NCBI GenBank assembly: GCA_900540365.1
Contig: UQFN01000001.1
Coordinates: 15,944-79,943, forward strand
Length of the DNA stretch: 64,000 bases
From: an uncultured Mollicutes bacterium
Lineage (GTDB): Bacteria > Bacillota_I > Bacilli_A > RFN20 > CAG-826
Direction: 5' to 3'
Position numbers and translations under genes: made by a program. The first letter of the stretch is position 1; each line of letters opens with the position of its first letter. Shown here piece by piece: positions 41,636 through 58,243 of the stretch. Below the pieces are notes generated by a model. It was not told the origin of the DNA and searched no databases. It was given only the letters and a program-made list of their open reading frames with translations.

Positions 41636-43495
41636 TTAATTTTTGTTTAATTTTTCTTTTAAATAATTTCTTAATGATTCATCTTCACAATAAATGTAGC
41701 AGCCTTTAATGCCTCTAGTTAAAAGTACTTTGTAAGTTCTTCTAATTAGTTTATCAGCTTCTTCATTTGAAGTACTTTTTAATCTAATTCCACTTGTCTT
41801 ATCATCTTTTGATATTGCATTACGTTTTGTTTGTACATGACCATCTTTATAATAGAGATCTTTACCAATAAAAACTCCGACATAATCAAATTCCATTCCT
41901 TGGCATGTATGAATACAACCTATTTCTTCAAAAGAATTAGGATTTACTGCCCGATGGTCATCGTTAGCTAAATTCCATTTTGCTTTAAAACCATTTGGAA
42001 GAATAATGTCCCAGTCACCTTTGTTATTTTTAACATTCCAATCATAACAATAACCTGCAATCATTCTAGCTTTGTTATTTATTTTATTTAATTCTCTTAA
42101 TTCATCTCTCATTTTGATAGGATCATCAAAAACCTTAACTTTAAGATTATTAAATTCAAAATTTGTATTAGCTGTTTGCTTAATTTCTAATAAATTATTT
42201 AAAAAAGAAATATAACCATCACTTCCATCACATCTAAATTGAGAAGTTAATTCATAAGGTTTATGAATAATTGCATTTTCTTTTTTAGCATACATAATAA
42301 TTGAATTTACATCATATTTATCATTAATAGTAATTCTTTGGTCATCATCAACAAAAAATATTGAAACTTTACTTGCTTTAATAGCATCTCCAAGCATGTC
42401 GTTACCTAAATATCTATAAGGTTTCTTTTGCATACGATGAGCTTCATCAAAAATACCTACATCAAGTCCGTTATATATCGTATTAGGTAAACACCATGGA
42501 GATTGAATTGCTTTTTGAAGATTAACCATCTTTTTAGCATTGCCTTTTGCTAATAAATTAGCATAACACTTTCTTGGAGCCATATTTTTTGTTATATAAG
42601 AAGCATTTAGTTTTAAATCTATAATACATCTAGCTAATATATTAATTGCTAAAACTGATTTCCCAGTTCCTGGCCCTCCAGTAATTATAAGAACATGCTT
42701 CCTTGTGTCATTTTGAGATTCTTTGATTGCTTTCATGATTTTATCATAAGCAACTACTTGTTCATCAATCATATGAAATTCTTCATTTCCACAAAGCATT
42801 GAATCTAAAGCACCTTGAAGAGATTTAGTAGGTTTTAATCTTCCTTCTTCAATTTTATAAAGCAAAGAACTATCATTTGCTTTTAACTTTATATAATTTT
42901 TAATAAAGTTTCTTAATTTTAAAACATCACTTTGCAAAAATACTGGGGCTTCTTCTATCCATTCATGATATAAGTTATCTTCAATAACAGGACGATATTC
43001 TTCACTTAAATTGTGTAGATATGCACATGGTTTTAAAGTCTCATTATTAATAGAAACAGAGTCATTACAATAATCTAATATTAATTGTTTATAAGAATAA
43101 GCTTGATATGAAGGGTGAGCAACAGGTTCATGGCTTCTTAAATCAGACATTATTGAATGATCACAATTATCATCAACTTTATTAACTCTAGCCCATTGTT
43201 TTAATTCAATAATAACAACATGATCTTCATCATTGTTATTACCCACAGTCATAAAATCAACACGTTTAGAAGTTTGAGGAATATTATATTCAATAGCAAC
43301 TTGACATTCGTTATCAAAATAAAAATCATCTAAAACATCTTTCATAAAGTGTAAAGAATTATTCCATGAATTTATTTCACTAGCTGATCCTCCACTTAAG
43401 CCTTTCTCTCTAAGTGTTTTTAAAAGAATACTTTGCATCATATTGAAAGTAACATCAGTTCTAAAATCTTTTAATGACTTATTATAAATGATCAT
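41636..43495 (-). CDS. PD-(D/E)xK nuclease-like N-domain fused to DUF2075-type (Schlafen/SF1 helicase-like) P-loop ATPase
   Basis: N-terminal restriction-endonuclease-like motif (RVDFMTVG ... VVIIELKQW, i.e. D...E-x-K). Walker A (ITGGPGTGKSVLA), Walker B (IFDEAHRM). Helicase motif V-like (IHTCQGMEFDYVGVFIG) and motif VI-like (VLLTRGIKG). Confidence 0.7.
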   Translation of the reverse strand: MIIYNKSLKDFRTDVTFNMMQSILLKTLREKGLSGGSASEINSWNNSLHFMKDVLDDFYFDNECQVAIEYNIPQTSKRVDFMTVGNNNDEDHVVIIELKQWARVNKVDDNCDHSIMSDLRSHEPVAHPSYQAYSYKQLILDYCNDSVSINNETLKPCAYLHNLSEEYRPVIEDNLYHEWIEEAPVFLQSDVLKLRNFIKNYIKLKANDSSLLYKIEEGRLKPTKSLQGALDSMLCGNEEFHMIDEQVVAYDKIMKAIKESQNDTRKHVLIITGGPGTGKSVLAINILARCIIDLKLNASYITKNMAPRKCYANLLAKGNAKKMVNLQKAIQSPWCLPNTIYNGLDVGIFDEAHRMQKKPYRYLGNDMLGDAIKASKVSIFFVDDDQRITINDKYDVNSIIMYAKKENAIIHKPYELTSQFRCDGSDGYISFLNNLLEIKQTANTNFEFNNLKVKVFDDPIKMRDELRELNKINNKARMIAGYCYDWNVKNNKGDWDIILPNGFKAKWNLANDDHRAVNPNSFEEIGCIHTCQGMEFDYVGVFIGKDLYYKDGHVQTKRNAISKDDKTSGIRLKSTSNEEADKLIRRTYKVLLTRGIKGCYIYCEDESLRNYLKEKLNKN

Positions 43496-43836
43496 AATTT
43501 AGTATATTTATTTGCTTTTCCTTTACACTTTTCTATTGGATATTTTAATTCATTTTTATCTAATTTATTATTAATAATTTCATCTTCATCTAAATTAAGA
43601 ACATCTAACATATTTTGACAATAAATTAATACATCCGCTAACTCATCTTTAACTTCATTTACATCAAAATCATTTTCATTCCATTGAAAACATTCTAATA
43701 ATTCATTAGACTCAATACTTATTGTTTTTGCTAAATTTGCAGGAGTATGAAATTTGTCACAATCTCTGTCTTTGGAAAATTTTTTAATTCTATCTTTTGT
43801 ATCTTTGTTCATATGAAAATTGTAATCTTTTTGCAT
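43492..43836 (-). CDS. MazG-like nucleotide pyrophosphohydrolase (RS21-C6/DCTPP1-like all-alpha NTP-PPase)
   Basis: 114 aa. Matches the family along its length: KFHTPANLAKTISIESNELLECFQW...VKDELADVLIYCQNMLDVLNLDEDEIINNKLDKNELKYP. Its stop overlaps the DUF2075 gene start by 4 nt. Confidence 0.8.
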   Translation of the reverse strand: MQKDYNFHMNKDTKDRIKKFSKDRDCDKFHTPANLAKTISIESNELLECFQWNENDFDVNEVKDELADVLIYCQNMLDVLNLDEDEIINNKLDKNELKYPIEKCKGKANKYTKL

Positions 43837-43966
43837 AAAAAAATCATTATTGTAATTTTTACATAAAACTTTGTTTTGAGGTTAATTCAAACAAAATATA
43901 TGAAAAAGTAAATATAATATTTCATAAAATATGTGGTATCATATTATTCGTGAGTAGATATAAGAT

Positions 43967-45421
43967 ATGAAAGTCGATTATTCAAAATTGTGGAAGTTGT
44001 TAATAGATAGAAAAATGTCCAAAACAGAATTTAGAAAATTTGCAGTAATAAGTACTAGTACACTTGCAAAACTCGGTAAGGAAGAATTGGTAAGCCCAGA
44101 GGTACTGACTAAAATATGTAGGGCACTAAATTGTGATGTCAAAGATATTCTTACTTTTGTTAAAGATGAACAAGAAATTATCGATACCGCTAAAGACAAG
44201 AATAAATACAAGGTTATATCATTATTTTCTGGCGCTGGAGGAATGGATCTTGGTTTCGTAAATGCAGGTTTCCAAATAATTTGGGCAAACGATATTTTTA
44301 AAGAAGCTATCGAAACTTATAAAAAAAATATTGGAAATCACATTGTATTTGGGGATATAAGTATGATATCAAGTGATGATATACCTAACGATGTTGATGT
44401 TGTTATAGGCGGATTCCCTTGTCAAGGGTTTTCAATTGCAAATAAAAACCGAAGTATGAATGATAAAAGAAATTTTTTATACAAAGAAATGCTTAGAATT
44501 ATTAAAGATAAAAAGCCAAAAATGTTTGTCGCTGAAAATGTAAAAGGCTTGTTATCAATGGAAAAAGGCAAAGTTTTCGATATGATTAAAAAAGACTTTG
44601 AATCTCTGGGATATTATGTTGAAGCTAAAATATTAAATGCTGCCGAATATGGAGTTCCTCAGCAAAGAGAACGCTTAATTATTATAGGAAATAGAATTAA
44701 CAAGTCCGTTTCTTTTCCAATAAAAACACATTACTTAAATAATGATAATAGTAATAAAAATCTTAAACCAGCAGTTGCTACAGAGAAAGCAATTGGTTGG
44801 CTTGCAAATATAAAATGTCAAGAAAATCCAATTATTCTGAAAAATGGTAAAGTAGTTTATCAACATATTGCTCTTGAAAATGTTGCCGATAAATTTTGGG
44901 GAAGAAAATATCCAGTTGATCAAAGTGAACTGTGCGATTACTTAGTATTTTGGAAGAAAAAAGCTAAGATAAGCACTAAAGAAATAGATAGATTGCTCGG
45001 CTATAAATTTACAGCTGGTCATTGGTTTAGAAAAGACAATAATAGTGGTAGCATCCCGACACCAGATGATTGGTGGAAACTAAAAAAAATACTAAATTTT
45101 GATGATAAATTTGATAAGGAGGTTACAACCTTAATCGAAAAAAAAGTTTCATTTGAGCAATCGCTGAGAATTACAAATTGGGATCGACCAAGTGATACAA
45201 TCACAGCAACAAGTCCTGAGATCCATATTAATAAAAAGAGAAGATTAAGTGTCAGAGAATGTGCAATATTGCAATGTTTCCCTGAAGATTTTATATTTTA
45301 TGGTTCAACAATAGGTGTTATGTATAAACAAATTGGCAATGCAGTTCCTGTTAAACTAGCATATGAGATTGCGATGTGTGTAAAATCAGAATTAGAAAAA
45401 TCTACTTGTCTTTTAAACTAA
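43967..45421 (+). CDS. DNA (cytosine-5)-methyltransferase with N-terminal XRE-type HTH
   Basis: HTH at residues ~1-60. m5C-MTase motif I (LFSGAGGMDLGF), motif IV (GGFPCQGFSIANK), motif VI (ENVKGL) and motif VIII (QQRER). After a variable TRD come C-terminal motifs IX-X (RLSVRECAILQCFP..., GNAVP). Confidence 0.9.
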   Translation: MKVDYSKLWKLLIDRKMSKTEFRKFAVISTSTLAKLGKEELVSPEVLTKICRALNCDVKDILTFVKDEQEIIDTAKDKNKYKVISLFSGAGGMDLGFVNAGFQIIWANDIFKEAIETYKKNIGNHIVFGDISMISSDDIPNDVDVVIGGFPCQGFSIANKNRSMNDKRNFLYKEMLRIIKDKKPKMFVAENVKGLLSMEKGKVFDMIKKDFESLGYYVEAKILNAAEYGVPQQRERLIIIGNRINKSVSFPIKTHYLNNDNSNKNLKPAVATEKAIGWLANIKCQENPIILKNGKVVYQHIALENVADKFWGRKYPVDQSELCDYLVFWKKKAKISTKEIDRLLGYKFTAGHWFRKDNNSGSIPTPDDWWKLKKILNFDDKFDKEVTTLIEKKVSFEQSLRITNWDRPSDTITATSPEIHINKKRRLSVRECAILQCFPEDFIFYGSTIGVMYKQIGNAVPVKLAYEIAMCVKSELEKSTCLLN

Positions 45422-46445
45422 TACTTTTAACCCCATCCCATCTTTCATTATGTGAATCGTATCTCTCAATAAGGCTCAAATTAGAAATTCGATTTGTATG
45501 GCCTTTATTTACAGCTTCAAGATAATATTCTTTTTTTGAGGAAATTTTGTTGACTTTTCTTGAAACTGGAAACCATGATACACCACTTGTTTTGTATATT
45601 GGATGTACTTGTTTTGAATTAAAAGCACCTTTTTTAGATCTTCCGTTGATAAGCTGGAAGTCAGGAAATTTATTTATATAATTTTCGATCGAATCTAATA
45701 CCTTTTCGCTATCATCAGTAAGATAAATTGGTTTGAATCCTTGTTTAATATCAAAATAACTATAGGTCTTAAAATTTGAGATCAAATCATAATCAAATAG
45801 TGGACTTAAGATACCGTTTGGCAAACATTTTAAGTAAATAGTATTAAAAGAATCGCCTCTGTATAATTGAAATTTTTTACTATCATCTTTGTAGACAATA
45901 ACCAAAAAATATGTCAAAACAGGTAGTAATTGACCATTATTGAAACTAAACTCTTCAGGTAACAGTGTTTCCACTTTTATGCCAGAATTTTTAATATTTG
46001 GATCAGTATCTAAATTAATATTATGAAAAGATGACTGATTACTTTCAAACTGTAAATTATTAATGTCACCCTTGTTTCCTTTGTAATCCAATGTTTTTAC
46101 ATCAACATTAATAACAGCATCTTTAGTAATAAAAGCAATGTCAGAAGAAACTGGCGATGGATATACATTTAAAATAAAGTCGCTTAAATATCTATAGATA
46201 TAAAATCTTGTAAGTCTTTCGGCAGGTATTTTTATTTTGTTTTTTTCATCCCAAACTTTTGTTAGAAAATTGTAATTTTTTTGTATTTCCTTTTCGATCA
46301 GCTTTAAATCTTTTATAAAAGATGCTGATGTAAATAGCGAATAAAGAATGTCGAAATATTTCTTTTCAAGGTCTAATACTTTTTTCATTTTATCGACATT
46401 ATGTTTTTTTGGATCAATTTGATAAATTTTTTTCTGTGTACTCAT
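45402..46445 (-). CDS. putative Type II restriction endonuclease (cognate of the C5-MTase)
   Basis: 347-aa ORF convergent with the MTase and overlapping it by 20 nt. No family motif recognised. The assignment rests on the classic convergent R-M gene arrangement. Confidence 0.5.
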   Translation of the reverse strand: MSTQKKIYQIDPKKHNVDKMKKVLDLEKKYFDILYSLFTSASFIKDLKLIEKEIQKNYNFLTKVWDEKNKIKIPAERLTRFYIYRYLSDFILNVYPSPVSSDIAFITKDAVINVDVKTLDYKGNKGDINNLQFESNQSSFHNINLDTDPNIKNSGIKVETLLPEEFSFNNGQLLPVLTYFLVIVYKDDSKKFQLYRGDSFNTIYLKCLPNGILSPLFDYDLISNFKTYSYFDIKQGFKPIYLTDDSEKVLDSIENYINKFPDFQLINGRSKKGAFNSKQVHPIYKTSGVSWFPVSRKVNKISSKKEYYLEAVNKGHTNRISNLSLIERYDSHNERWDGVKSISLKDK

Positions 46446-46565
46446 TCTCTTATATTAATACTTTTGTAAAAAATAATAAACTTTGTAAAAAATTTTGATA
46501 ATTTTTATTGCACTTCACATTATTATTGACAGAAAATATCCTTCAAATTATATAAATTATAAAAA

Positions 46566-47210
46566 CTAAGCATTCCAGAACACTATACTTTTAATTTTTT
46601 TATAAATATCTTTATTATTATTTTTGTCCCATAAACCAAACATACTATTAAAACTTGTTAAAAGACATTTTTTGTTAAATAAAGGGTGATTAGAACATTT
46701 AGTAACAAACCTTTTAATCAATTTAAGATAGACATCTTTATCGTTAATAATTAAAGAATGGCATTTTAATCTCCATTTTTGATTTGCCTTCCAACCTGAA
46801 TATACATCATTCAGCTCTGGTACAATAAAATTTATTATTCCGCCAATTCCAACTATATCATATTTGTTTTTGTTTTTTGCTGGATACTCACATATTAAAA
46901 TATGTAAAAACAAATGTTCAAGATAGTCACAGTAAACAATATTTTCAGGTAATTGCCATTCATATGGATTTGCTAAAGCGTGTGTTTTGCTTCCTAACAT
47001 TATTGCATGATCTTCATATTTATGATGTGCTAGCAACCCATCACTAGTTCTTGAACATTTAGGATTACGATTACCATTTTTAAACATATATGCACTTCGT
47101 CCAATCCCGTACTTCTTTTGCAAATAGTTACAATATTCAAGATACGTATATCCTTTTACTTTGTTATATTCTCTCATGTTCATAATATCTTTTTCTTCGA
47201 ATAAACTCAT
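46566..47210 (-). CDS. hypothetical protein
   Basis: 214-aa ORF. Its first six codons (MSLFEE) and about 100 nt upstream duplicate the 3' end of the helicase pseudogene (see findings). Confidence 0.45.
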   Translation of the reverse strand: MSLFEEKDIMNMREYNKVKGYTYLEYCNYLQKKYGIGRSAYMFKNGNRNPKCSRTSDGLLAHHKYEDHAIMLGSKTHALANPYEWQLPENIVYCDYLEHLFLHILICEYPAKNKNKYDIVGIGGIINFIVPELNDVYSGWKANQKWRLKCHSLIINDKDVYLKLIKRFVTKCSNHPLFNKKCLLTSFNSMFGLWDKNNNKDIYKKIKSIVFWNA

Positions 47211-47575
47211 TTGATCAATTCTATTATCTTACTTCTATTTTTCCAATTATAAATTCATAACGTTTAGTCTAAAATTTATATTGTACTTAACGCAAATATC
47301 TCACATAAATCAAATGATGCTTTTATAACTAAGTTATATATCAGCATTAATTTAAAAATATCATAACTTATATTAAAAGCAAAATATAAGAATGTAAAAG
47401 TATTAGCATATCCGATTTCAGCATTGTCTCTTACATCTTTTATCACAAAAAAATAGTGAAATAGATAAGTTTTATCACATTTTATGAGCCAATCATTACA
47501 TTAAAAATATATTTTTAATTAAGCAAGTTCTATAAACTTTCATATATCTAATTAATATTTTATTCTTCAAATAAA

Positions 47576-50500
47576 CTCATTTGTTCGAATGCTTCATCTA
47601 AATTTTGTATTTTCCCGATTGTAAATTCAAATAAACCAATAATTGATTCATAATCTTTAACTGCACTATTAGGTATTCTAATTAATTTTATATTGTATTT
47701 AGCACAGATTTCTTCTTTTTTCTATCTCTAAGAGCAGTTTCTTTACTACCAACATGTTCACCACCATCAATTTCAAAAGCAACTATTGTTTTATATTGAC
47801 GATTAAATAAACCTCCACTAACTTGAACTATAACATCAAATTCTTTCATACCTATTTCTTTATGGTCAAAATAATTTACATTTTTAATAGCTTTTTCTAC
47901 AAGTACATTTCTTTCAATTCTAAATTTAGATCCTCGACGATTAAAATAAGGTTTAATAGTTTCAAAAAACTCCCTTTCGCTTTTTGAATCATTTGAAAAA
48001 TCATAATTAATAACTGCTTCACTTTGAGGAACACTAATTTCTCCGTTACCAAAAACATAATCTGAAAGAGCTTTAATATCATTAGTGTCGTTTTTACTTA
48101 AGGCATCAATTGCTTCTTTATCTCCAACAAAAATAAATTTATTTTTTGCTCTAGTAACTGCAACATTAATTAATTCATAATTATTTTTAATCCAACCCAT
48201 TGTTCTTTTTGCGGTTTTTAAAGATAAGGCTGAAGACATAATAATTACTGATTTTTCTTAACCTTGTAAGGTATGAACTGTACCAGCTTTAACATCTTCT
48301 ATTCCAAATTGTTCTAAATATTCATTAATTAAAGCTGCTTGGTTAACAAATGGAGTTATTATTCCAACATCCTTATAATTATTTTCTTTAATAATTTTTG
48401 CTATTTCATAAGCTTCTTCATTATAGGAATTCCTTAATTTAGCTTTAGATGTATTTTGAACATTTACATAAACTAAATCACCTAAATTTTCATTAAGTAA
48501 CTTAAGTTGTTTCTCATAAAATCTTTGATTAACAAAACTTGCAATTCTTTTACCGCATCGATAATGGTATCTTAATAAGATACATTTCGAATTATTATCT
48601 TTCTTTAACATTAAAGAAAGAATTGAATTTCTAACATAGTTATATTCTTTACTAATGTTATATTTATTCATTAAATCAAAATTAACATCATTTTCAATTA
48701 CGGTAACTGGTTGCAGTTGATTTGTATCTCCTACTAATAATAAATTTTCTCCTCTAACAATAGGAATTAATGAAGATGCAATATTGCATTGTCCTGCTTC
48801 ATCCATTATTACTAAATCAAAATGATTAGTTGCACTTCCTAACTTTTCTGAAGATAAATTAGTAGATAAAATAATAGGAAAAATAGACAAAAAACGTCTT
48901 AAATTCAAGTTATTTTTCAAAAATTTATTAAATTTAGAAACTGCAATATTCTCATCTTCAAGTGCAATAATTTCCCTTAATTCCTTAAAAGTTGGACCTA
49001 ATAATTTCTTATATCTTAAAATTGATGAGTAATATAAAAAATTGTGAAAATCTAAATCATCAAAGACTGATTTTGTACATTTAAATATATCTTTATCAGT
49101 AATATTTTTACTTGTGTTTAATTTATATTTATAAAGTTTAAGTTCAGATTCTAATTTCTCATTAATTTGATTAATTGATATAAAATCTTTTAATTTTCCA
49201 AGAGTATTGATACGCTCTTCTAAATCTAATTTATTTTCATATTCTATTAATAACTTTTTAAGTTCATTAAAGTTTGATAATGATTTATTTTTATTATCTT
49301 CAATTAGATTATCATATGTCTTTACATCTTGATTTTTTGATATATAAGTAAGTAATTCTTTTAACTTTTTAATCGTGTCAAGCATTTCAATATTATTTCC
49401 AATACGAATCATTGGAAAAATAATTTCTTGACTACTATTTTTAAATTTAAAAGACTCAATCATCTTTTTATAAATATCAATAACAGGATGATTGTTATTT
49501 GAACATACTAAAACTGTTTTATTATTTGCATAAGCAGATAATAAAACATTAAATATAGTTTCTGTTTTACCAGTTCCTGGTGGCCCTTTAACATAAGTAA
49601 TATGATTAACCATTGAGTTATAAACTACCCTAAGTTGATCAATATTTATTTTATTTTTATTAAATACAACAATATTTAAATCTTTATCTTTGTTATTTCT
49701 ACTTCTATTTCGACCAAAAAAAGCTTTCAAAGGTGTAGTTAATTTATTTTCTTCATCTAGTTTTTCAATAGATTCAATTGCATCACTTACACCATTTAAA
49801 CAATTTCGAAATAACAAAAATATTGATGGAGTCGTATCTATTCTTTCGTTATGATGAAAATTTTCTTTAATTAATTCTTTATATTCATTATATTTTTCAT
49901 CAAAGGTAGAACAAAAATCTTCAGAAGAAATTCCATCTAAATACATTCCTAAAGTAACTCTTTTTCTTTCAGAAATTAAAAAAGAATTATTAATAGAAGA
50001 TTTTTTGGCTACATGTAATGTTTTATCTAAAAAATTTAACTCTAATTCACGATATGCAATAACATATTGCTTTCCATCAATATCTATTGAAAGTTTATTT
50101 AAAGCAAGTGTAGCAAAGCGATTTTTTTGTTTAGCTTCTTCATAAGAAACTTTAAATACTTTATCTAATAAAATATTAAATTGATTATCATCTAATTGAT
50201 AATTAGAAGATTTAGAAAGTGTATAAAAATCAATATCATCAATTAAAGCTTTATCTTTAACGTAAGGGTCATTATCTAATCGATAACATTCTAATAAATA
50301 TTCTAAAATATTATTATCAAAATTAACTACATCAAAATAAGCATAAAACGCCTTATCATTTTTAATTTTAGTTTTAAGATTTATAGGAATTTCGTAGTAA
50401 CTATTTTCAATAATCCTAGCAGATTTAATTCCTGAAAATTTAATATAAGTGTCATTTCCTTTTTTTAAAAGATGGTCAGTTTTAAAAGGATTAAAAATAT

Positions 50501-50648
50501 CACAATAAATGATTTCTTTTTTAATATCTACTGCTTTTATTCCAATATAATAATTAGTAGACTCATTATTCCTGTTTAAATAAGAAACTGCGAGCCATTT
50601 ATTACTAATAATTGCTTGATATATTAAGTTCTTTATCGATAATTTCAT
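47576..50648 (-). pseudogene. Upf1-like (AAA_11/AAA_12) SF1 helicase with C-terminal DUF559 (Vsr-like) endonuclease domain, disrupted by in-frame TAA and a poly-A frameshift
   Basis: Helicase motif I (KGPPGTGKTET), motif II (VIMDEAGQ), and motif V (TVHTLQG) followed immediately by TAA at 48258-48260. The same frame resumes (EKSVIIMSS...VAVTRAKNKFIFVGD, motif VI). A DUF559-like domain follows (IVAFEIDGGEHV...RDRKK). It ends in the 47688 ORF, but a frame change in the A-run near 47712-47722 gives a native-looking tail (EEICAKYNIKLIRIP...EQMSLFEE*) ending at 47576. Confidence 0.7.
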
Positions 50649-50940
50649 GTTTAATTATATTTATTATAGTAATAATTACAAAAAAATCATAAATATAAAT
50701 CCTTTAATTTAAAATAAATTTAATTACTAATAATTCAGCATTGCATAATTCCTTTATTCCGTACACATTTTTAATTTTTTTATTTTTAACATCATTTTCT
50801 CTCTTACAATTAAAATATGTTTACAGTAACACCTTTACAGTTAGTTATCTTTTGGTAACTGTTGTTTTTTATTAATTCTATAATTTTCGCTAATGTTTCA
50901 ATATAAAATCCCAAGCTATATTAGCAATATATCATTATCA

Positions 50941-51030: not shown

Positions 51031-51990
51031 TTATTTCTTCATTTCCACTAAAGGAATGTTGTTTTCATTGCAATACTTGCGAATGGCTTCTTTATTTTCG
51101 ACTGAAGCGTCAACTCCTAAGATGATCTTTTTGATCTTTGGCGCAGGAGTTCTAGTGTTTGCGTCTCCTAAAATTCGCCACTCGTTTTGATACTCCCACT
51201 GCTTGTATTTAGTTATAAACAGTCTTAAATATTGAGAAGTGTCTGGCTTTATTTGATGGCTCGACATGCCGAATACCATTTGTCCTATGAAATTAGCCAC
51301 TATAGACATCACAATGTTCGTTTCTCTTTCGTCTTGATAAATTACAGGAAACAATATGTTTGGTGTCTTAAAATCGCTAAAATCATATTCGACGCAATAT
51401 CCACTATTCTTGCCAGCATAGTTCTCCCACATGTATTCATTATCAGCATCCTCACAAAGTGAACAAATACCCATTTTTTGTCTTGCTTCATAAGCTCCAA
51501 GAATTAATGTTTTTATTTGTTCATTCATTCCAGGTTCATCAAGCTTCTGAGGAATATTGACCAAGTAATTAACGATGGGAGCTGTGTTAGCACCAGGGAC
51601 TAGCTCATCTATTTCTGGTTGAATATCCAAAAGATGATTTGGTCTAACGGTTCCGTTTCTATTTAGAATCTGACTAATCAACAGCTGTATTTGCTCAAAG
51701 TTCTCTTTGCTTGTATAAGGCCTAATAAATTCCATTATTTGAAAAACACACTGTCTCTTTAGTCCATCTTTCTCTAAGTCATACAAGTTTTGCATATTGA
51801 GGGATGTCATACATTCAGTAGGATCATCCAACTTCTCAGCAACGCATAAGAAAAGATATTTGTTTTCAAACATGTCGAATGTGTGTTCATCAAACGGTCT
51901 ATATTTGAAAAGAGACGCAGGCCCTTTATAAGACGCATCTCTATTCATCAAAATATAGTTAATATAATAAAGCCTTTCGTTATGGTTCAT
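51031..51990 (-). CDS. DUF2971-family protein
   Basis: The N-terminal signature (SLFKYRPF...ENKYLFLCVAEKLDDPTECM) is consistent with DUF2971 (LYKYRSF...fNDPfE). 319 aa, immediately downstream of hsdR. Confidence 0.5.
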   Translation of the reverse strand: MNHNERLYYINYILMNRDASYKGPASLFKYRPFDEHTFDMFENKYLFLCVAEKLDDPTECMTSLNMQNLYDLEKDGLKRQCVFQIMEFIRPYTSKENFEQIQLLISQILNRNGTVRPNHLLDIQPEIDELVPGANTAPIVNYLVNIPQKLDEPGMNEQIKTLILGAYEARQKMGICSLCEDADNEYMWENYAGKNSGYCVEYDFSDFKTPNILFPVIYQDERETNIVMSIVANFIGQMVFGMSSHQIKPDTSQYLRLFITKYKQWEYQNEWRILGDANTRTPAPKIKKIILGVDASVENKEAIRKYCNENNIPLVEMKK

Positions 51991-52001
51991 AAATCATACT
52001 A

Positions 52002-55000
52002 TTAAGCTTTAATTTTCTTTTCTTTCCATATTTCTAACAAAACCCAGTGTAAGCAGTCGTTTCTAAAATCAAAATCAGCTATTTTTGTAACAAATGAGTA
52101 AACATTAGGGTTGTTAGTAAGAACCTTATAAACGTTGCATTTGTTATCCATACAATTCATGAAAATGATTTTTTCAAATTCATCAAAGGTTTGACAATAG
52201 GCAAGAACATTTATGCAGAAAGAATTATTCAATAAGAATTCCATAAATTCTTTAAAGATTGGTTCTGTCGGAGATAATCCAAGGTTTTCGTTGAATACCT
52301 TCACAGCCTCTTCTAAAGTACTTGTTTCAGGTTTTTTTGAAGTTGGTTTTCTATTTGCACCACTTGAACCAGTCATCTCTTTACCATCGCCATATTCCGG
52401 ATCGCTGATTGATTCATTCTTAGTAATGCAAATGTTAGTAAATTTTACCAACTCACTCAAATCCTTTATCGACAAAACATTTGTTCTTAACTTAATGCAA
52501 GCAAGAAGATAGGAATAGAACACGTCTTTATCCCTTAATCTCCTGTCATTAAGTATTGTTTTTTGTATACAAATATCATACATACGGACAAAGTTACGAA
52601 TTACCCATAGTTTGTCTTTTTTATACTTTTGCTGTTCTATCAAATCCTTAGAGAATGCTTTAGCATCGTTTTCAAATTTAATTCTAATTCTGGCTACAAT
52701 TTGTGTTAATGCCAAATAGGCAGAATCATCTTTTTTGTAAGAAGCAGATTGTAGATAAACTGCGCCTGCATGAATTTCTTCTTCTGTTGCGAGTCTTAAT
52801 GCATCAAGATTCTTTTCAAGCTTGTAGATATCGTCAAAATCATCTTTTCTGTAATATTTGGCGTCAACATAGAAAGTGTTAAATGCGTCCAGAATATCGT
52901 TGTATTCATTAACAAAATCTAAAACAAATGTTCGTTTTTCAGGATATTCAGGACACACCCTATTTAATCTCGATAATGTTTGGACAGCCTTGACTCCTTT
53001 GAGTGGAGTATCAACAAGCATCATAGATAAATATTGCTCATCAAAACCAGTAGTATACTTATCAGCAACTACTAAGAATTTATATTCTTTATTCTTGTGG
53101 AAAACTTCTTCAAGCGGATCGGTCAAATTGTTAAAGTCGTTTTCTTCATATTTAATGCCTTTAATCTCTAAAACATCTGAATAAGCAATTAAAGCTTTAT
53201 AAGAGAGACCATTGTCCGCGAAATACTTATTCAAAGCAATATAGTACTTCAATGCAGCTTCTCTTCTTCCGGTCACAATCATTGCTTTCAAATTACCATC
53301 CAAGTCATTTACGCGAGAATAGAAGAATCCCATGAAAATATTGACCTTTTTCTCAATGATTTTCTCATCCAACAAAGTTGCATCGGTAAGAGTTTTATTG
53401 GTTTTATCCAAATCAACTAATAGGTCTTGTTCTTTAATACATTGTGCTTTGCAATATAGAGAATAAGTGTTGTAATTCTTAAGAACATCTAGAATGAATC
53501 CTTCATCGATGGCTTGTTTCATTGTATATGAGAAGAAAGGCTTGTATTCTTTTCTTCCTTGTTCGTCCAAAACTGGTTGTCCATTTTCATCCACAACAAC
53601 ATCACCAAATATTTCTCTGGTTTCCTTTTTAGGCGTTGCTGTAAATGCTATGAAGGTGACGTTCTTCAATCTACCTTCAACTTTATCCATTCTGTCATTG
53701 ATAAGATCTGCGATTTGCTCTGAGGTAAATTCTTTATCTTTTAGATAATCGTTTAACGATTCCTTATCGTCTATCGAGAATGAAGTTTTAATATCATTCA
53801 TGTATTGACCGGATGTAGAGTCATGTCCTTCGTCAATTAAAACAGCAAACTTTTTATTTTTCGTTGAAGAAATACCATCAACGGCATCAGGGAATTTTTG
53901 CATGTTAGCAACAATTATGCGGTCTCCGGAGTTAATGGAACTCTTTAATTTTGCTGAACTAGTTGGTTTAACTACAAAGCCAGTTTGATGATCAATTTTA
54001 TTCATTGCTTGATCCAACTGTTTATTAATTACTAATCTGTTAGAAACAATAATCACGCTGTCAAAAATAGGTTTATTGTTACAGTTGTTTAAGTAAGCAA
54101 GTTTGTAAGCGGTCCACACAATCATGAATGTTTTGCCTGAACCAGCTGCAGCTGCTATTAAATAATTCTTTAAATCGTCTTTTGTAAATTTATCTAAAAC
54201 ATCTTCAATTATATTGTTTGTACATTTAAATTGATGATAACGAGGAAAGATCATTGAATCTTTTTCGCCAAAAATGAAGTTTTGAATAAGATTAGAAATA
54301 CCTTCCTTGGTCATTATTTCTTCCCAGAAGTATTCGACTGGATAATGTGGGTACTCAGTATCAGGATTTCCGGCACCACCATCATTGCCCTGGTTAAATG
54401 GCAAGAAATCAGCATCTTTTGACAGATTGGCGCACATCGATATATGAAGTCTGTCCATCGCAAATGAACATATGATGTGTCTGAAATAAGCAGATGTATG
54501 ATCTCTATCATTCTTTAATTGATATTCAGCATCTTGATACGTTTGAGTAGTTCCGTTTTTTATTTCCACTGCAAAAAGATGCAGACCATTAACGCCAATA
54601 GAAACATCAATGCGATCACTAGTACCTAAATAATTTAGTTCTTTCACGACAAAAAAGCGGTTCTTTTTGTAACGTTCATACTCTTCGGGATTAATTGTAT
54701 TGTTAGGCTTAGTGTAAAAAATGAAGAGCTGTTCTTTTGCACAACCGGCTGGTTGAATGTAAATACCTTTGACTAAAGCTTTAATTATTCCGTCTTTAGA
54801 CAATGCTTCGTATATTAAACTTAATAAATCGCTTTCTGAGCATTCTCTTAATAGCTTTTCTGTGACTTTTGGTTGAGTATCTTTGAGAAACTCAAAGAGT
54901 AAGTTTTTATCCAAGGCATAGGTTGATATGTAATTCGCGCCAACATTGCCGAGCGAATCTTTAAGCTTTTCATATACTATTCTTTTTTCAAATGACATTT

Positions 55001-55043
55001 CGTTAGGCATTGGTATCCATCCCCTTTCCGTGTATTCGTTCAT
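52002..55043 (-). CDS. hsdR: Type I restriction enzyme R subunit (HsdR)
   Basis: 1013 aa. Walker A (AAAGSGKTFM), DEAH-like motif II (VLIDEGHDS), helicase motifs in the C-terminal RecA domain, and an N-terminal HsdR_N nuclease region. Its start region overlaps hsdS. Confidence 0.85.
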   Translation of the reverse strand: MNEYTERGWIPMPNEMSFEKRIVYEKLKDSLGNVGANYISTYALDKNLLFEFLKDTQPKVTEKLLRECSESDLLSLIYEALSKDGIIKALVKGIYIQPAGCAKEQLFIFYTKPNNTINPEEYERYKKNRFFVVKELNYLGTSDRIDVSIGVNGLHLFAVEIKNGTTQTYQDAEYQLKNDRDHTSAYFRHIICSFAMDRLHISMCANLSKDADFLPFNQGNDGGAGNPDTEYPHYPVEYFWEEIMTKEGISNLIQNFIFGEKDSMIFPRYHQFKCTNNIIEDVLDKFTKDDLKNYLIAAAAGSGKTFMIVWTAYKLAYLNNCNNKPIFDSVIIVSNRLVINKQLDQAMNKIDHQTGFVVKPTSSAKLKSSINSGDRIIVANMQKFPDAVDGISSTKNKKFAVLIDEGHDSTSGQYMNDIKTSFSIDDKESLNDYLKDKEFTSEQIADLINDRMDKVEGRLKNVTFIAFTATPKKETREIFGDVVVDENGQPVLDEQGRKEYKPFFSYTMKQAIDEGFILDVLKNYNTYSLYCKAQCIKEQDLLVDLDKTNKTLTDATLLDEKIIEKKVNIFMGFFYSRVNDLDGNLKAMIVTGRREAALKYYIALNKYFADNGLSYKALIAYSDVLEIKGIKYEENDFNNLTDPLEEVFHKNKEYKFLVVADKYTTGFDEQYLSMMLVDTPLKGVKAVQTLSRLNRVCPEYPEKRTFVLDFVNEYNDILDAFNTFYVDAKYYRKDDFDDIYKLEKNLDALRLATEEEIHAGAVYLQSASYKKDDSAYLALTQIVARIRIKFENDAKAFSKDLIEQQKYKKDKLWVIRNFVRMYDICIQKTILNDRRLRDKDVFYSYLLACIKLRTNVLSIKDLSELVKFTNICITKNESISDPEYGDGKEMTGSSGANRKPTSKKPETSTLEEAVKVFNENLGLSPTEPIFKEFMEFLLNNSFCINVLAYCQTFDEFEKIIFMNCMDNKCNVYKVLTNNPNVYSFVTKIADFDFRNDCLHWVLLEIWKEKKIKA

Positions 55044-56247
55044 AAATAATAGATTTTTTAAATTGTTTTAATTTCTCTATTTTTTCAGTTTTAAGTTTAA
55101 TCAACGAATTAATTACCGCTACTTTTTTATCCAAATAATTAACGATTTCTTTTTGCTCAGCAATTGGAGGGAGAGGAAATTGAAAATTCCCGAATTGTTC
55201 TTGATAGAGGTGTATAATTGTACTTTGTCCCCTTTGATTATAATCAAACCACTCCCAAAAAATATTACTTGAAAGGCAATAAAACAAGTATTTATTAATG
55301 TATTTACCTGACTCGTTTCTAATCAACATAATTCCACTATTAAGAGATGTTTTATAAGGCAAACCTTGAACAATAGCAACTTTGCCAACAGTGCCGTCTT
55401 TTGTTATTAAGAGATCGTTTTCTTTAATCTGAATCTGATAAGCTTCTTTGTATCTTGCCTCAGTAATATGAGTGCATGTGTCCCAATTGATTGTTCCATC
55501 TAAAAAATCAGTCCCAGTTATTAAAAATGGCCCTTCATCCTTGTACTCTTCAGCCTTTAATCCTTGCCATCCAATTCTTCCTTTAAGATAGCAATGATGT
55601 TTTATTTTTGCTAGCTCCCAATCTATAGGTAATTCACCTATAAAATGGTTTTTCGTTTTTTTCTTTTTCGACTTTCTGAGTCCATTTTTGCAAAGCTCAG
55701 AAATGAGGCTGTATCTATAGGCTCTCAATTTTTCGATTTCTTGTTCTTCAAAAGAGAGGGAGTCATTAATTTTGCTAATTGAGTTATTCAGTTCGTTGAC
55801 AATCTTTATTTGTTCCTCGTTGGAACGTGTAGGTATGTAAAAATTCTTTATATCATTTGTCGAAATATTAGGCTGTGCGGATCCCATCGAAGTAAGCCTA
55901 ACAAAATCTAAAAACATATCATCTAATAGGCAATATTTCAAATACTCTGGTCTTACGCAGCGCGGCCTTATAATACCAACTCGCTGGTTAATACAAGCCG
56001 GTTTATCATCGTCAAAAAGTCCGCTTTTTCCAACGGTGGCGCCACTAAGAGCAACAAGAACATCATTTCTTTTAACGGTATATGGTGACAATCTAGGATC
56101 AAATTGAACACCATAGCATTTTTGAATATCTATTTTTTCATCGACGTCTGTAATTCTAATCACAGGAAAAGGATTCGAATAATCAAAACTGATTGGTTTA
56201 AAAGCAAAACCATTTATTAAATCTGCTATGTATTTAATTCTAATCAT
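55003..56247 (-). CDS. hsdS: Type I RM specificity subunit (HsdS), two target-recognition domains
   Basis: Two TRDs separated by a coiled-coil conserved region. Conserved blocks: ALSGATVGKSG, GSAQPNISTNDIKNF, LPPIAEQKEIV. It overlaps hsdM by 8 nt. Confidence 0.85.
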   Translation of the reverse strand: MIRIKYIADLINGFAFKPISFDYSNPFPVIRITDVDEKIDIQKCYGVQFDPRLSPYTVKRNDVLVALSGATVGKSGLFDDDKPACINQRVGIIRPRCVRPEYLKYCLLDDMFLDFVRLTSMGSAQPNISTNDIKNFYIPTRSNEEQIKIVNELNNSISKINDSLSFEEQEIEKLRAYRYSLISELCKNGLRKSKKKKTKNHFIGELPIDWELAKIKHHCYLKGRIGWQGLKAEEYKDEGPFLITGTDFLDGTINWDTCTHITEARYKEAYQIQIKENDLLITKDGTVGKVAIVQGLPYKTSLNSGIMLIRNESGKYINKYLFYCLSSNIFWEWFDYNQRGQSTIIHLYQEQFGNFQFPLPPIAEQKEIVNYLDKKVAVINSLIKLKTEKIEKLKQFKKSIIYERIHGKGMDTNA

Positions 56248-58243
56248 TGAATAATTCCTCGATCAGGCCCTTTTCTTTGCTGATTATATTTTTCAAATCC
56301 GCCAAAACCGCTGACGAAGATATTGGTTCTTTATACTTATAAAAAAACTTATTGAAATTTATCTCGCACCCAACCTTAGTAACATAGTCATCTGTAAACC
56401 AGGCATCAAGCAAATAAGGTTTAACATTTTCTTCAAAATAAGCATCAACAGATTTGCTATACTCAACAAATTCGCTATCGTTTAATTCAGAATCTGGTTT
56501 CAAACCTGTTTTGGTTTTTTTATCTGGATAAGTCTTTGAAGTGTTATCTTTTTCTGAAAAAGCCATCGCAATTGCTTTGATGTATTTGTCTTGCAGGGAA
56601 GGGAAAATGTTTTTAATAATTCTAACGAAAGCATTCATGTCATCATATACGATTTCATTAAAATTGTTATTCAAGGTGGTCAATATTTGGTCTTGTAATA
56701 CTTTCCCATCTTTTAATTTTCTAATTTTTTCCAGGTTTTCTAATGTAGCTTCTTTATTAAGTAAATCTTCAAGCTCTTCCTCATCAAAAAGCGAAGAAAA
56801 CGCATTCTGAGAATAAAGATTATCAATACGCTCTCTACACAATTTAAAATTCCTTCTAAATGGTTGTTGAATCGTTACTTCATAATAGTAGAACTCTTCT
56901 TTTTTTACATATTTGACTAATTCTGAAGGCTTATTAACATCAAATTTTGAATAAAGATTAACTATATTTTCAATGTCTTCAGAAGTCATTTCTTTTCTTT
57001 TATAACCAATTCCTTTTTTAAGATTGTGAAAAAAAGATGAAGCATCAATAATTTGTATCCACCCTTTTCTCTTTTGAGATTTGCCGTTTTTACTTATAAC
57101 CCAAGCATAAATTGATATACCAGTATCAATGAAGCCTTGATCAGGCAACTTTATAATAGCTTCAACATAGTCTCTGTCTAATAACCATTTTCTGATTTTG
57201 CTTTCTCCTGATAATGTTGCACCACTAAACAATGGTGATCCGTTTGAAAGTAATGCTGCTCTGCCTTTATCTTTCAATTTTCTTATTGCGGCCTTCCAAA
57301 ATAGCATTTGATTGTCCGTTGATGTAGGAAGATCGTCGCCAAGCAAATTTTTAATAGTATCTTCGTCTGCTTTTTTTCTACCGCAGCCATAAGGAGCGTT
57401 CTGAAGGACATAATCAAAATCGTCGTTTGGAAATGGATCTTCTTTCAATGTATCTGCAACAACGAAGTTCTCTGCCTTTTGACCAATCATAAGTTGTTCA
57501 GCCTTACAAATTGCAATACTTAAATCACTATTATCCTGGCCATACACAACAACATTGTTCATCGGGTTCATTGCCGTTACAGTTTTTTCAAAATGGCTTG
57601 TTAGCTGTCCAGAGCCAACACAATTATCTAGTAGCGTAACATAATTGAATCCATTTTTTAGATGTTCGCACCCTTCAGCAAGCAAAAGCTTGGTTAGTAA
57701 TTCGACAAAATCCGATGGAGTCCAGTTTTGACCATTTTCTACTGTGCCATAAACCATGCAAATCAATTGGCCGAATAGTTTTCCCATCTCTGTATTATCC
57801 ATAACGCCTAAATCAAGCGCATCAAACTTCTTAAGAACGCCATAAAGAGTTCCTTTGTCATCTAACGCCTTTGCTGTTTTAACGAGGTCCAACCCTTTTT
57901 CACCGAAAATAAAGGTAACGTTATCTGAAAAGCCTTCGATCATTTTCTTGGTGTTGGAATAGTATTTTTGTGGATCGGAGAGCAAATCATGGAATGTCAT
58001 TTTGCAGACGTTGTAATATCCATGCCCAGATTCAGAAAGAAGTTTTTGCTTATCAATTGTGCCTTCTTTTTTCATTTTTGCATATGCTTTATCAACCGCT
58101 TCTTGTGTATCTTTAAGAAGGCCCATCAATCTTTTTAAGATTGTAAAGCCTAAAATTGTGTCACGATAGTAATCTTGCATGCTATCTTTACGCAAAATAT
58201 CTTGAACACTCTTTATATCGTTAAAATAATTTCTTGTATCCAT
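56240..58243 (-). CDS. hsdM: Type I RM N6-adenine DNA methyltransferase (HsdM)
   Basis: 667 aa. N-terminal HsdM_N domain, motif I (LDNCVGSGQL), motif IV (NAPYG), then a C-terminal helical region. Confidence 0.85.
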   Translation of the reverse strand: MDTRNYFNDIKSVQDILRKDSMQDYYRDTILGFTILKRLMGLLKDTQEAVDKAYAKMKKEGTIDKQKLLSESGHGYYNVCKMTFHDLLSDPQKYYSNTKKMIEGFSDNVTFIFGEKGLDLVKTAKALDDKGTLYGVLKKFDALDLGVMDNTEMGKLFGQLICMVYGTVENGQNWTPSDFVELLTKLLLAEGCEHLKNGFNYVTLLDNCVGSGQLTSHFEKTVTAMNPMNNVVVYGQDNSDLSIAICKAEQLMIGQKAENFVVADTLKEDPFPNDDFDYVLQNAPYGCGRKKADEDTIKNLLGDDLPTSTDNQMLFWKAAIRKLKDKGRAALLSNGSPLFSGATLSGESKIRKWLLDRDYVEAIIKLPDQGFIDTGISIYAWVISKNGKSQKRKGWIQIIDASSFFHNLKKGIGYKRKEMTSEDIENIVNLYSKFDVNKPSELVKYVKKEEFYYYEVTIQQPFRRNFKLCRERIDNLYSQNAFSSLFDEEELEDLLNKEATLENLEKIRKLKDGKVLQDQILTTLNNNFNEIVYDDMNAFVRIIKNIFPSLQDKYIKAIAMAFSEKDNTSKTYPDKKTKTGLKPDSELNDSEFVEYSKSVDAYFEENVKPYLLDAWFTDDYVTKVGCEINFNKFFYKYKEPISSSAVLADLKNIISKEKGLIEELFND

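Follow-up and report, generated by a model that had tools for sequence, protein, structure and literature searches.

A probable relic of a helicase-nuclease gene end lies upstream of a SAV1803-domain gene in a putative defence island

Results

The stretch analysed here comprises 64,000 nucleotides (nt) of an uncultured Mollicutes bacterium (contig UQFN01000001.1, positions 15,944 to 79,943; hereafter the window) and contains, on its minus strand, a superfamily 1 (SF1) helicase-nuclease gene followed by a gene for a SAV1803-domain protein, with a direct repeat at the boundary between them whose two copies we call R1 and R2. R1 is the native 3' end of the helicase gene. R2 is very probably a non-coding, neutrally decaying relic of a helicase-nuclease 3' end from the same sub-lineage as the neighbouring helicase, the downstream gene being an independent one of 205 amino acids (aa) that begins at 47183. 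This reading draws on the observed homology of the two copies, the relic status of R2, the true start of the downstream gene, the native C-terminus of the helicase, the distribution of the repeat in the population, and a deletion product of the repeat. The features concerned are as follows, in window coordinates.

47560 to 50648, minus strand: SF1 (AAA_11/AAA_12) helicase with a C-terminal DUF2726/restriction endonuclease (REase)-like nuclease domain, as assigned with Pfam; a pseudogene here.
47553 to 47716, minus strand: R1, the native helicase 3' end, comprising the last ~52 codons, the stop codon and 7 nt beyond; the reference copy of the repeat.
47569 to 47583, minus strand: codons for Q-M-S-L-F, a family-wide C-terminal motif that fits the consensus QL[S/D]LF or QxxLF.
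47305 to 47552, minus strand: spacer, 248 nt of unique, AT-rich non-coding DNA between R1 and R2.
47184 to 47304, minus strand: R2, the decayed non-coding relic of the helicase 3' end, directly upstream of the 205-aa gene.
47246 to 47273, minus strand: TTTAGA-16-TATAAT, the best sigma-70-like match of the region (10/12), inside R2 and possibly the downstream gene's own promoter.
47184 to 47210, minus strand: nine-codon extension MSLFEEKDI, artefactual and due to loss of the stop codon in the relic; it turns 205 into 214 aa.
46566 to 47183, minus strand: 205-aa SAV1803-domain gene (NF053682), starting MNMREY with its ATG at 47183; intact in all strains.

The helicase 3' end is present twice

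R1 and R2 are related through five collinear, gap-free blocks of 24 to 60 nt that are 75 to 90% identical: 47183–47212 with 47553–47582 (90%), 47183–47242 with 47553–47612 (75%), 47233–47257 with 47605–47629 (84%), 47243–47266 with 47636–47659 (79%), and 47272–47301 with 47684–47713 (80%). Their local alignment scores 41.5 against a mean of 15.7 (standard deviation 2.6) for shuffled sequences (z = 10), none of 300 shuffles scoring as high, and a gapped global alignment contains 103 matches, 17 mismatches and 46 gap columns. The start-to-start spacing of the blocks takes the values 370, 372, 393 and 412, from which it follows that R2 has lost about 42 nt; its deletions relative to R1 are of 2, 21 and 19 nt. 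The reading frame of R2 is destroyed by the 2-nt and 19-nt deletions, with TAATAG within the former frame and three frame changes in all, and in the window haplotype the former stop codon TAA is now AAA.

The duplicated junction between helicase tail and next gene that was claimed in the preliminary description is thus real and lies far above chance. The approximately 120 nt upstream of the open reading frame (ORF) of 214 aa described there are indeed a degenerate copy of the helicase tail, with an alignment reaching beyond the shared core, and pairwise alignment of the two junctions shows flanking similarity through all five blocks. Two positions need correction: the helicase stop codon is at 47560–47562 and not at 47576, and the second copy of the 14-nt core, AAACTCATTTGTTC, is at 47573–47586 rather than 47581–47594.

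The homology stops at ATATTA, immediately 5' of the ATG at 47183, and both copies run into this hexamer. Past it, similarity into the downstream gene is at chance level (z = 0.3, local alignment against shuffles), and local alignment found no significant continuation into the 248-nt spacer. At the DNA level R1 is 72–81% similar to the helicase tails of other genera. R2 aligns best to R1, with a score of 37.5 compared with 24.5 and 19 for helicase tails of other genera, and it carries the lineage-specific ...F-x-IGKI... as R1 does, where other genera have ...FVVKDL...

The downstream gene starts at residue 10 of the 214-aa frame

The 214-aa ORF belongs to a family of more than 900 members. Most of its listed homologs are 200 aa long and align from query residue 10 (MNMREYNKV... 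in the query, MNLxEYEKV... in the homologs), and in an all-against-all representative library residue 10 of the query corresponds to residue 1 of most full-length matches. As the homologs begin there, the real gene is 46566–47183 and MSLFEEKDI is an extension of the ORF call into R2. The beginning at MSLFEE that had been assigned to this ORF does not hold, and the extension is not conserved among strains.

No Pfam or PADLOC match was found for the 214-aa ORF. The 205-aa protein matches the NCBIfam model NF053682 ('SAV1803-related') over residues 5–129 (3e-35; 120.9 bits, with the cutoff at 40). The uncharacterised SAV1803 gene borders the S. aureus vSa-beta island, close to restriction-modification (R-M) genes (PMC6805111), and like it the 205-aa gene adjoins R-M genes. 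A structure model of the protein is all-alpha, with a predicted local distance difference test score (pLDDT) of 75, and has no significant neighbours in the PDB. Across strains the ratio of nonsynonymous to synonymous divergence (dN/dS) of the 205-aa gene is 0.06–0.18 at a dS of 0.05–0.17; the gene is under purifying selection.

Distant SAV1803-domain homologs (P0232, P0234, P0243, P0148, P0198, P0216 and P0264) are fused to other proteins. SNF2 helicases carry the domain C-terminally, ResIII/Helicase_C proteins with NUMOD or Myb DNA-binding domains carry it N-terminally, and a 1563-aa protein combining ResIII with an Eco57I methylase has it at its C-terminus. These fusions suggest a nucleic-acid-related role for SAV1803-type domains, possibly in defence. 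Fusions to SNF2, ResIII/Helicase_C and Eco57I-type proteins indicate an affinity of the domain for helicase and R-M contexts, and not for the SF1 family considered here. The genes flanking SAV1803-family genes in other genome loci are heterogeneous, and include a nucleoside hydrolase, NYN, GmrSD and PilT-like genes, and an FMN reductase.

MSLFEE is the native C-terminus of the helicase

When the two lesions of the window's helicase gene (described below) are both corrected, the protein is 1029 aa long, with the tail ...FEFTIGKIQNLDEAFEQMSLFEE and ending ...KDYESIIGLFEFTIGKIQNLDEAFEQMSLFEE. A search with the corrected protein yielded an intact 1029-aa relative (P0271, 99% identical) and, among the 120 matches listed, more than 100 further homologs at 60–66% identity, all of 1016–1053 aa. 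The C-termini of these homologs are strikingly alike (...EAYTQMSLFDEE): the motif Q-[MLIV]-[SNT]-L-[FL], with about 3 acidic residues behind it, is present in 117 of the 120 listed homologs (P0271–P0390), 1–7 (mostly 3) residues from the end. In a 28-sequence alignment spanning 60–66% identity, Q1023 and L1026 show no variation and conservation of F1027 is at least 90%, and the 15 columns before the motif contain no invariant position. From the uniformity of the C-termini and the conserved Q, L and F we conclude that MSLFEE is the native, selected end of the helicase. The peptide is shared between the two copies as the conserved C-terminal peptide of the helicase family, not as a recombination signal or as the start of the next protein, and the sharing is no evidence of a past fusion.

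Strain variation and recombination at the repeat

Exact-protein look-ups returned over 30 contigs that cover this locus, drawn from several projects. About 27 related Candidatus Onthovivens-like contigs have the R1–spacer–R2 arrangement, most of them with an intact 1029-aa helicase; both cores were found by pattern in 21 contigs, 367–402 nt apart, and in contigs L084–L089, which have point changes in the cores, both repeat copies were recognised by alignment. In L061-type strains R2 retains TAA after MSLFEE and the gene is called at 205 aa, in L084 an ACG replaces the relic ATG, and in L043 the relic reads MNLFEE (MSLF to MNLF). R1 of L084 changes only to QISLFEE, such that the motif is kept. 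Since the nine-codon extension occurs only where the relic stop has gone from TAA to AAA, the 214-aa call is specific to such haplotypes. Among 10 haplotypes the proportion of segregating sites is 14.9% in R2, 14.0% in R1, 9.3% in the spacer, 10.5% in the adjacent helicase sequence and 2.9% over the gene's first 34 nt, and the variation of R2 looks neutral. R1 and R2 differ by about 15–25% plus three deletions, compared with a strain dS of at most 0.17, placing the duplication before the diversification of the sampled strains.

Contigs L045 and L080, which come from separate samples, have just one copy. At the L080 junction the left part of R1 is followed by CAAATGAGTTTATTTGAAGAATAA and then by GATATTATGAACATGAAAG, the right part of an L061-type R2, and this is the exact product of a crossover within a 24-nt block that is identical in R1 and the L061-type R2; the L045 junction is slightly different. 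L045 shares R1 single nucleotide polymorphisms with L061 and the window, and the downstream R-M cassette is common to both single-copy contigs, L061 and the window. The nesting of the single-copy alleles among R-M-carrying haplotypes, together with the crossover junction of L080, shows that the single-copy state is derived. In these alleles the helicase stop is retained 5–6 nt from the downstream start, and there is no fusion. The R1/R2 repeat is therefore a substrate for deletion of the spacer.

We rejected assembly artefacts as the source of either form, the repeat occurring in over 20 independent contigs of several projects, and the single-copy form in two samples with slightly different junction sequences. 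A metagenome scan with a degenerate junction pattern gave eight matches, all of them chance matches in unrelated or GC-richer contigs.

Origin of R2

We suppose that R2 would derive from an earlier helicase copy, or helicase 3' end, that was displaced such that its tail alone survived. Displacement may have occurred by a one-sided (homology-facilitated illegitimate) replacement bringing in R1 and the spacer, or else by a short-repeat-mediated deletion that left the tail, as L043-type strains now do to the present helicase; the L043-type deletion leaves 370 nt of helicase tail, and so the island does produce such tails. The change of the relic stop from TAA to AAA in the window haplotype lets an ORF finder run nine codons back to the relic ATG, giving 214 aa, and the R1–spacer–R2 arrangement now recombines occasionally with deletion of the spacer, as in L080 and L045.

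Several points weigh against this account. The spacer has no match in the helicase, in the downstream gene or among the 3' flanks of helicase homologs, which bars a reconstruction of the founding event; among the sampled contigs there is no strain with the presumed earlier state, in which a helicase is continuous with R2. The score of R2 with R1 (37.5) makes it just modestly nearer to R1 than to the tails from other genera (24.5 and 19). The relatives are all metagenome contigs, and polarity is assigned by parsimony in a recombining population. Finally, translation from the upstream ATG in the window strain is compatible with the sequence alone.

Compatible with a relic origin, but in our judgement unlikely, is the proposition that R2 and the spacer have been kept because they serve the downstream gene as promoter or 5' leader, making its expression independent of the often-inactivated helicase. 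R2 contains the best promoter-like site of the region, 36 nt ahead of the relic ATG, and the –10 element of this site is made by a C-to-T change relative to R1; moreover, the downstream gene stays intact and constrained in strains in which the helicase is dead or deleted. However, promoter-like sites are not enriched in the region (12, against 13.1 expected from shuffles), R2 and the spacer are as variable as the neighbouring sequence, and the single-copy alleles exist without either R2 or the spacer.

Local DNA alignments of the spacer with the downstream gene, the 3' kilobase (kb) of the helicase and the 6 kb downstream are at or below shuffle level, and it has no match among the 3' flanks of helicase homologs. 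Profile hidden Markov models of both families, run against six-frame translations, found only the real helicase tail, with E>0.07 for the spacer. We therefore rejected decayed gene sequence from the downstream gene or the helicase as its source, there being no similarity at either the DNA or the profile level. We likewise rejected a repeat, a mobile element or an RNA: the spacer is single-copy, with no copies elsewhere in the window nor in any fetched locus outside the lineage, it has no Rfam match at E<=1, and its RNA fold z-scores of –0.7 and –0.9 give no fold signal. No terminator was found in the region. Strains of the L043, L061 and L084 types have an extra ~32 nt at about 47478–47495 of the spacer, which resembles an imperfect tandem repeat of the adjacent ...GCTCATAAAAT GTGA... 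segment, and a 20-nt palindrome is located at 47500–47519.

A local tandem duplication of a ~410-nt unit that takes in the helicase tail and the gene's 5' part, with the spacer as a decayed form of the latter, is quite improbable. It would account for two direct copies 370–412 nt apart that are each followed by ATATTA, but the spacer should then resemble the first ~240 nt of the gene, and it scores 15.0 in DNA alignment with the 5' part of the gene, below the shuffle mean of 17.7, and exceeds E = 0.07 with the profile. Very improbable also is insertion of the spacer as a foreign or mobile fragment at the helicase/gene boundary, with an unusually long (~130–160 nt) target duplication. The repeat–unique–repeat structure and the single-copy alleles of L045 and L080 are what such an insertion would give; however, the spacer is without terminal inverted repeats, an ORF with homologs, other copies, an RNA family or a structure signal, the two copies differ by about 20% plus indels while the strain dS is 0.05–0.17, and the single-copy alleles are derived (nested in R-M-carrying haplotypes, with L080 an exact crossover product) and not ancestral.

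Least credible of all is a gene fission, by which recombination at the MSLFEE junction divided into two genes a helicase that once continued in frame through the SAV1803 domain. In its favour, the relic MSLFEE is in frame with the downstream gene in the window haplotype, an R1×R2 crossover would yield an in-frame fusion, and SNF2 or ResIII helicases and an Eco57I-type enzyme carry distantly related SAV1803 domains. Against it, the helicase family ends QMSLF(D/E)EE* in those 117 of 120 listed homologs, all of 1016–1053 aa, the members of the downstream family begin at residue 10 of the 214-aa ORF, the relic stop codon is still TAA in L061-type strains, the observed recombinants L045 and L080 retain the stop codon, and the helicase and SAV1803 families are unlinked in other genomes. 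With a chimeric query, in which the 115 C-terminal residues of the helicase were joined in frame to the 214-aa ORF, no protein matched across both halves; coverage reached at most 65%, from the ORF's own cluster. Neither the helicase nor its tail is within 7 kb of a SAV1803-family gene in any of 41 genome loci (0/41), and helicase homologs elsewhere have unrelated downstream genes; a conserved helicase plus SAV1803 operon is accordingly rejected.

These results bear on the preliminary description in three respects. Its suggestion that the 214-aa ORF was once the C-terminal extension of a helicase paralog is contradicted by the native helicase end, the start at residue 10, and the lack of a fused protein. 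Looking for helicase homologs that continue into the downstream domain, as it advised, gave none of this SF1 family, only distant SAV1803 domains on superfamily 2 (SF2) helicases, and these reflect an affinity at the level of the domain and not the history of this locus. Recombination at the junction, which it also proposed, did survive inasmuch as L045 and L080 are R1×R2 deletion products; the gene fission attached to that proposal did not, given the native C-terminus, the true start and the lack of any fusion. We favour the relic reading of R2 throughout what follows.

The helicase and its inactivation

Two lesions distinguish the helicase gene of the window.

48258 to 48260, minus strand: nonsense codon (in-frame TAA) within the QG-S-E motif of the helicase, between ...TVHTLQG and EKSVII...
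47716 to 47721, minus strand: A6 run causing a frameshift (A7 in every other strain) that splits off the last 52 helicase codons.

The gene had been described as a pseudogene with a frameshift, and the combination of the nonsense codon with the A7-to-A6 change bears this out. At the position of the nonsense codon five related contigs have TCA (Ser), and both lesions are specific to the window's strain. Inactivation has taken other forms elsewhere: in L055 the helicase is split differently, into 764 and 226 aa, and L043, L044 and L079 are without the sequence corresponding to window 47949–50805 (2.86 kb), such that the helicase promoter and the first ~900 codons are gone. The joint of this deletion is at an 11–12-nt direct repeat or microhomology (TATTTTAAT[T/C]GT), and a 370-nt helicase tail is left. 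The deletion is an inactivation independent both of the window's nonsense codon and frameshift and of the L055 split.

The nuclease part of the helicase is DUF2726/MTES_1575-like, with sub-threshold Pfam matches. A full-length structure model is weak (mean pLDDT 65) and contains a moderately confident alpha/beta nuclease-like domain at residues 890–1010; the last block has a pLDDT of 48 within this weak overall model.

A clamp-binding-like motif at the helicase C-terminus

The consensus for binding to the bacterial beta sliding clamp is QL[S/D]LF, or more generally QxxLF, an example being the QLSLF at the C-terminus of PolC (PMC12309361). The helicase tail is similar to this motif in conserving Q, L and F at positions 1, 4 and 5, and in its location at the extreme C-terminus. 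It differs in that the helicase is a helicase-nuclease of the defence-island type and not a replication or repair factor, and the match is at the level of the motif. A literature search found no paper linking a clamp-binding motif to an anti-phage helicase.

We tentatively propose, from sequence, that Q-M-S-L-F-(D/E)-E-E may bind the beta clamp and so recruit a stand-alone SF1 defence-island helicase-nuclease to DnaN-loaded (replicating or clamp-marked) DNA, and that in haplotypes with a stop-less relic a single R1×R2 crossover would fuse the helicase in frame to the SAV1803 domain; we hold the whole as somewhat doubtful. A fusion arising in this manner would mimic the helicase–SAV1803 fusions known with SF2 helicases. 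If the tail does bind DnaN, it would suggest how this class of helicase-nucleases finds its DNA targets, which makes it a lead of wider interest.

Gene neighbourhood

The G+C content of the window is 27%. Candidatus Onthovivens merdipullorum has an annotated cluster mate of the helicase (90% identity), and the window probably derives from that genus. The gene order around the repeat, read from upstream to downstream on the minus strand, is as follows.

51031 to 51990, minus strand: DUF2971 gene.
50648 to 47560, minus strand: SF1 helicase gene.
47210 to 46566, minus strand: 214-aa ORF.
Beyond the 214-aa ORF, in order: MwoI_N-type restriction gene, C5 methyltransferase gene (plus strand), MazG-like gene, and Schlafen-group-3-type helicase gene.

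The DUF2971 protein encoded upstream of the SF1 helicase has a match (2e-34) to PDC-S31, a candidate system in PADLOC. Within 51031–58243 of the window there is also a type I R-M set of HsdR, HsdS and HsdM, as read with Pfam in the identical contig L001. The segment from 41.6 to 58.2 kb of the window looks like a defence island. The largest ORF of the window, of 1924 aa, is at 13609–19383 on the minus strand.

A 3.6-kb block at 42903–46489 is present in the window, L045, L061 and L080, and is missing from L043/L051-type strains. It holds the MwoI_N-type REase gene, a helix-turn-helix C5 methyltransferase gene, the MazG-like gene, and the first ~594 nt of a 619-aa Schlafen-group-3-type helicase ORF, and its joint is at a 10-nt repeat (TAAAAATTAT). 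In strains without the block the Schlafen-group-3-type helicase is a 425-aa version.

Discussion

For annotation, the outcome is that the 214-aa ORF becomes a 205-aa SAV1803-domain gene and that the helicase of the window is a pseudogene of an otherwise intact 1029-aa family. R2 is an ordinary gene relic that causes a nine-codon over-extension of the neighbouring ORF, and represents ordinary wear of a defence island. The locus provides a well-sampled small example of defence-island remodelling in a reduced-genome gut Firmicute, in which deletions occur at direct repeats of 10–24 nt, the helicase has been inactivated independently several times, and the relic repeat still drives deletions.

Among known defence systems, the helicase is similar to Mokosh (MkoA/MkoC) and Hhe in joining an SF1 Upf1-like AAA_11/AAA_12 core to a nuclease domain, and its gene stands alone in the defence island. 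Its best PADLOC matches are to MkoC (1.8e-57), MkoA (7.5e-45) and Hhe (1.8e-12), those to MkoC and MkoA covering the helicase core only, and its NCBIfam ProA score is far below the cutoff. It differs from Mokosh type II (MkoC) in that the match covers profile positions 491–971 of 1136, there is no PLD match, and the nuclease is DUF2726/REase-like. It differs from Hhe (DUF4011, helicase and nuclease in ~1800 aa) in scoring 62.8 bits against a cutoff of 2000, in a PADLOC match of just 161 profile positions, and in being about half the size.

R2 in turn resembles the gene remnants left by short-repeat or illegitimate recombination in defence islands, being a truncated, frame-broken 3' fragment beside an intact neighbour. 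As with remnants in variable islands, other indels at this locus have direct repeats of 10–12 nt at their joints, and the copies recombine to a deletion allele. Unlike the usual gene remnant, however, R2 sits beside a full-length copy of the same type of gene, across a spacer of 248 nt.

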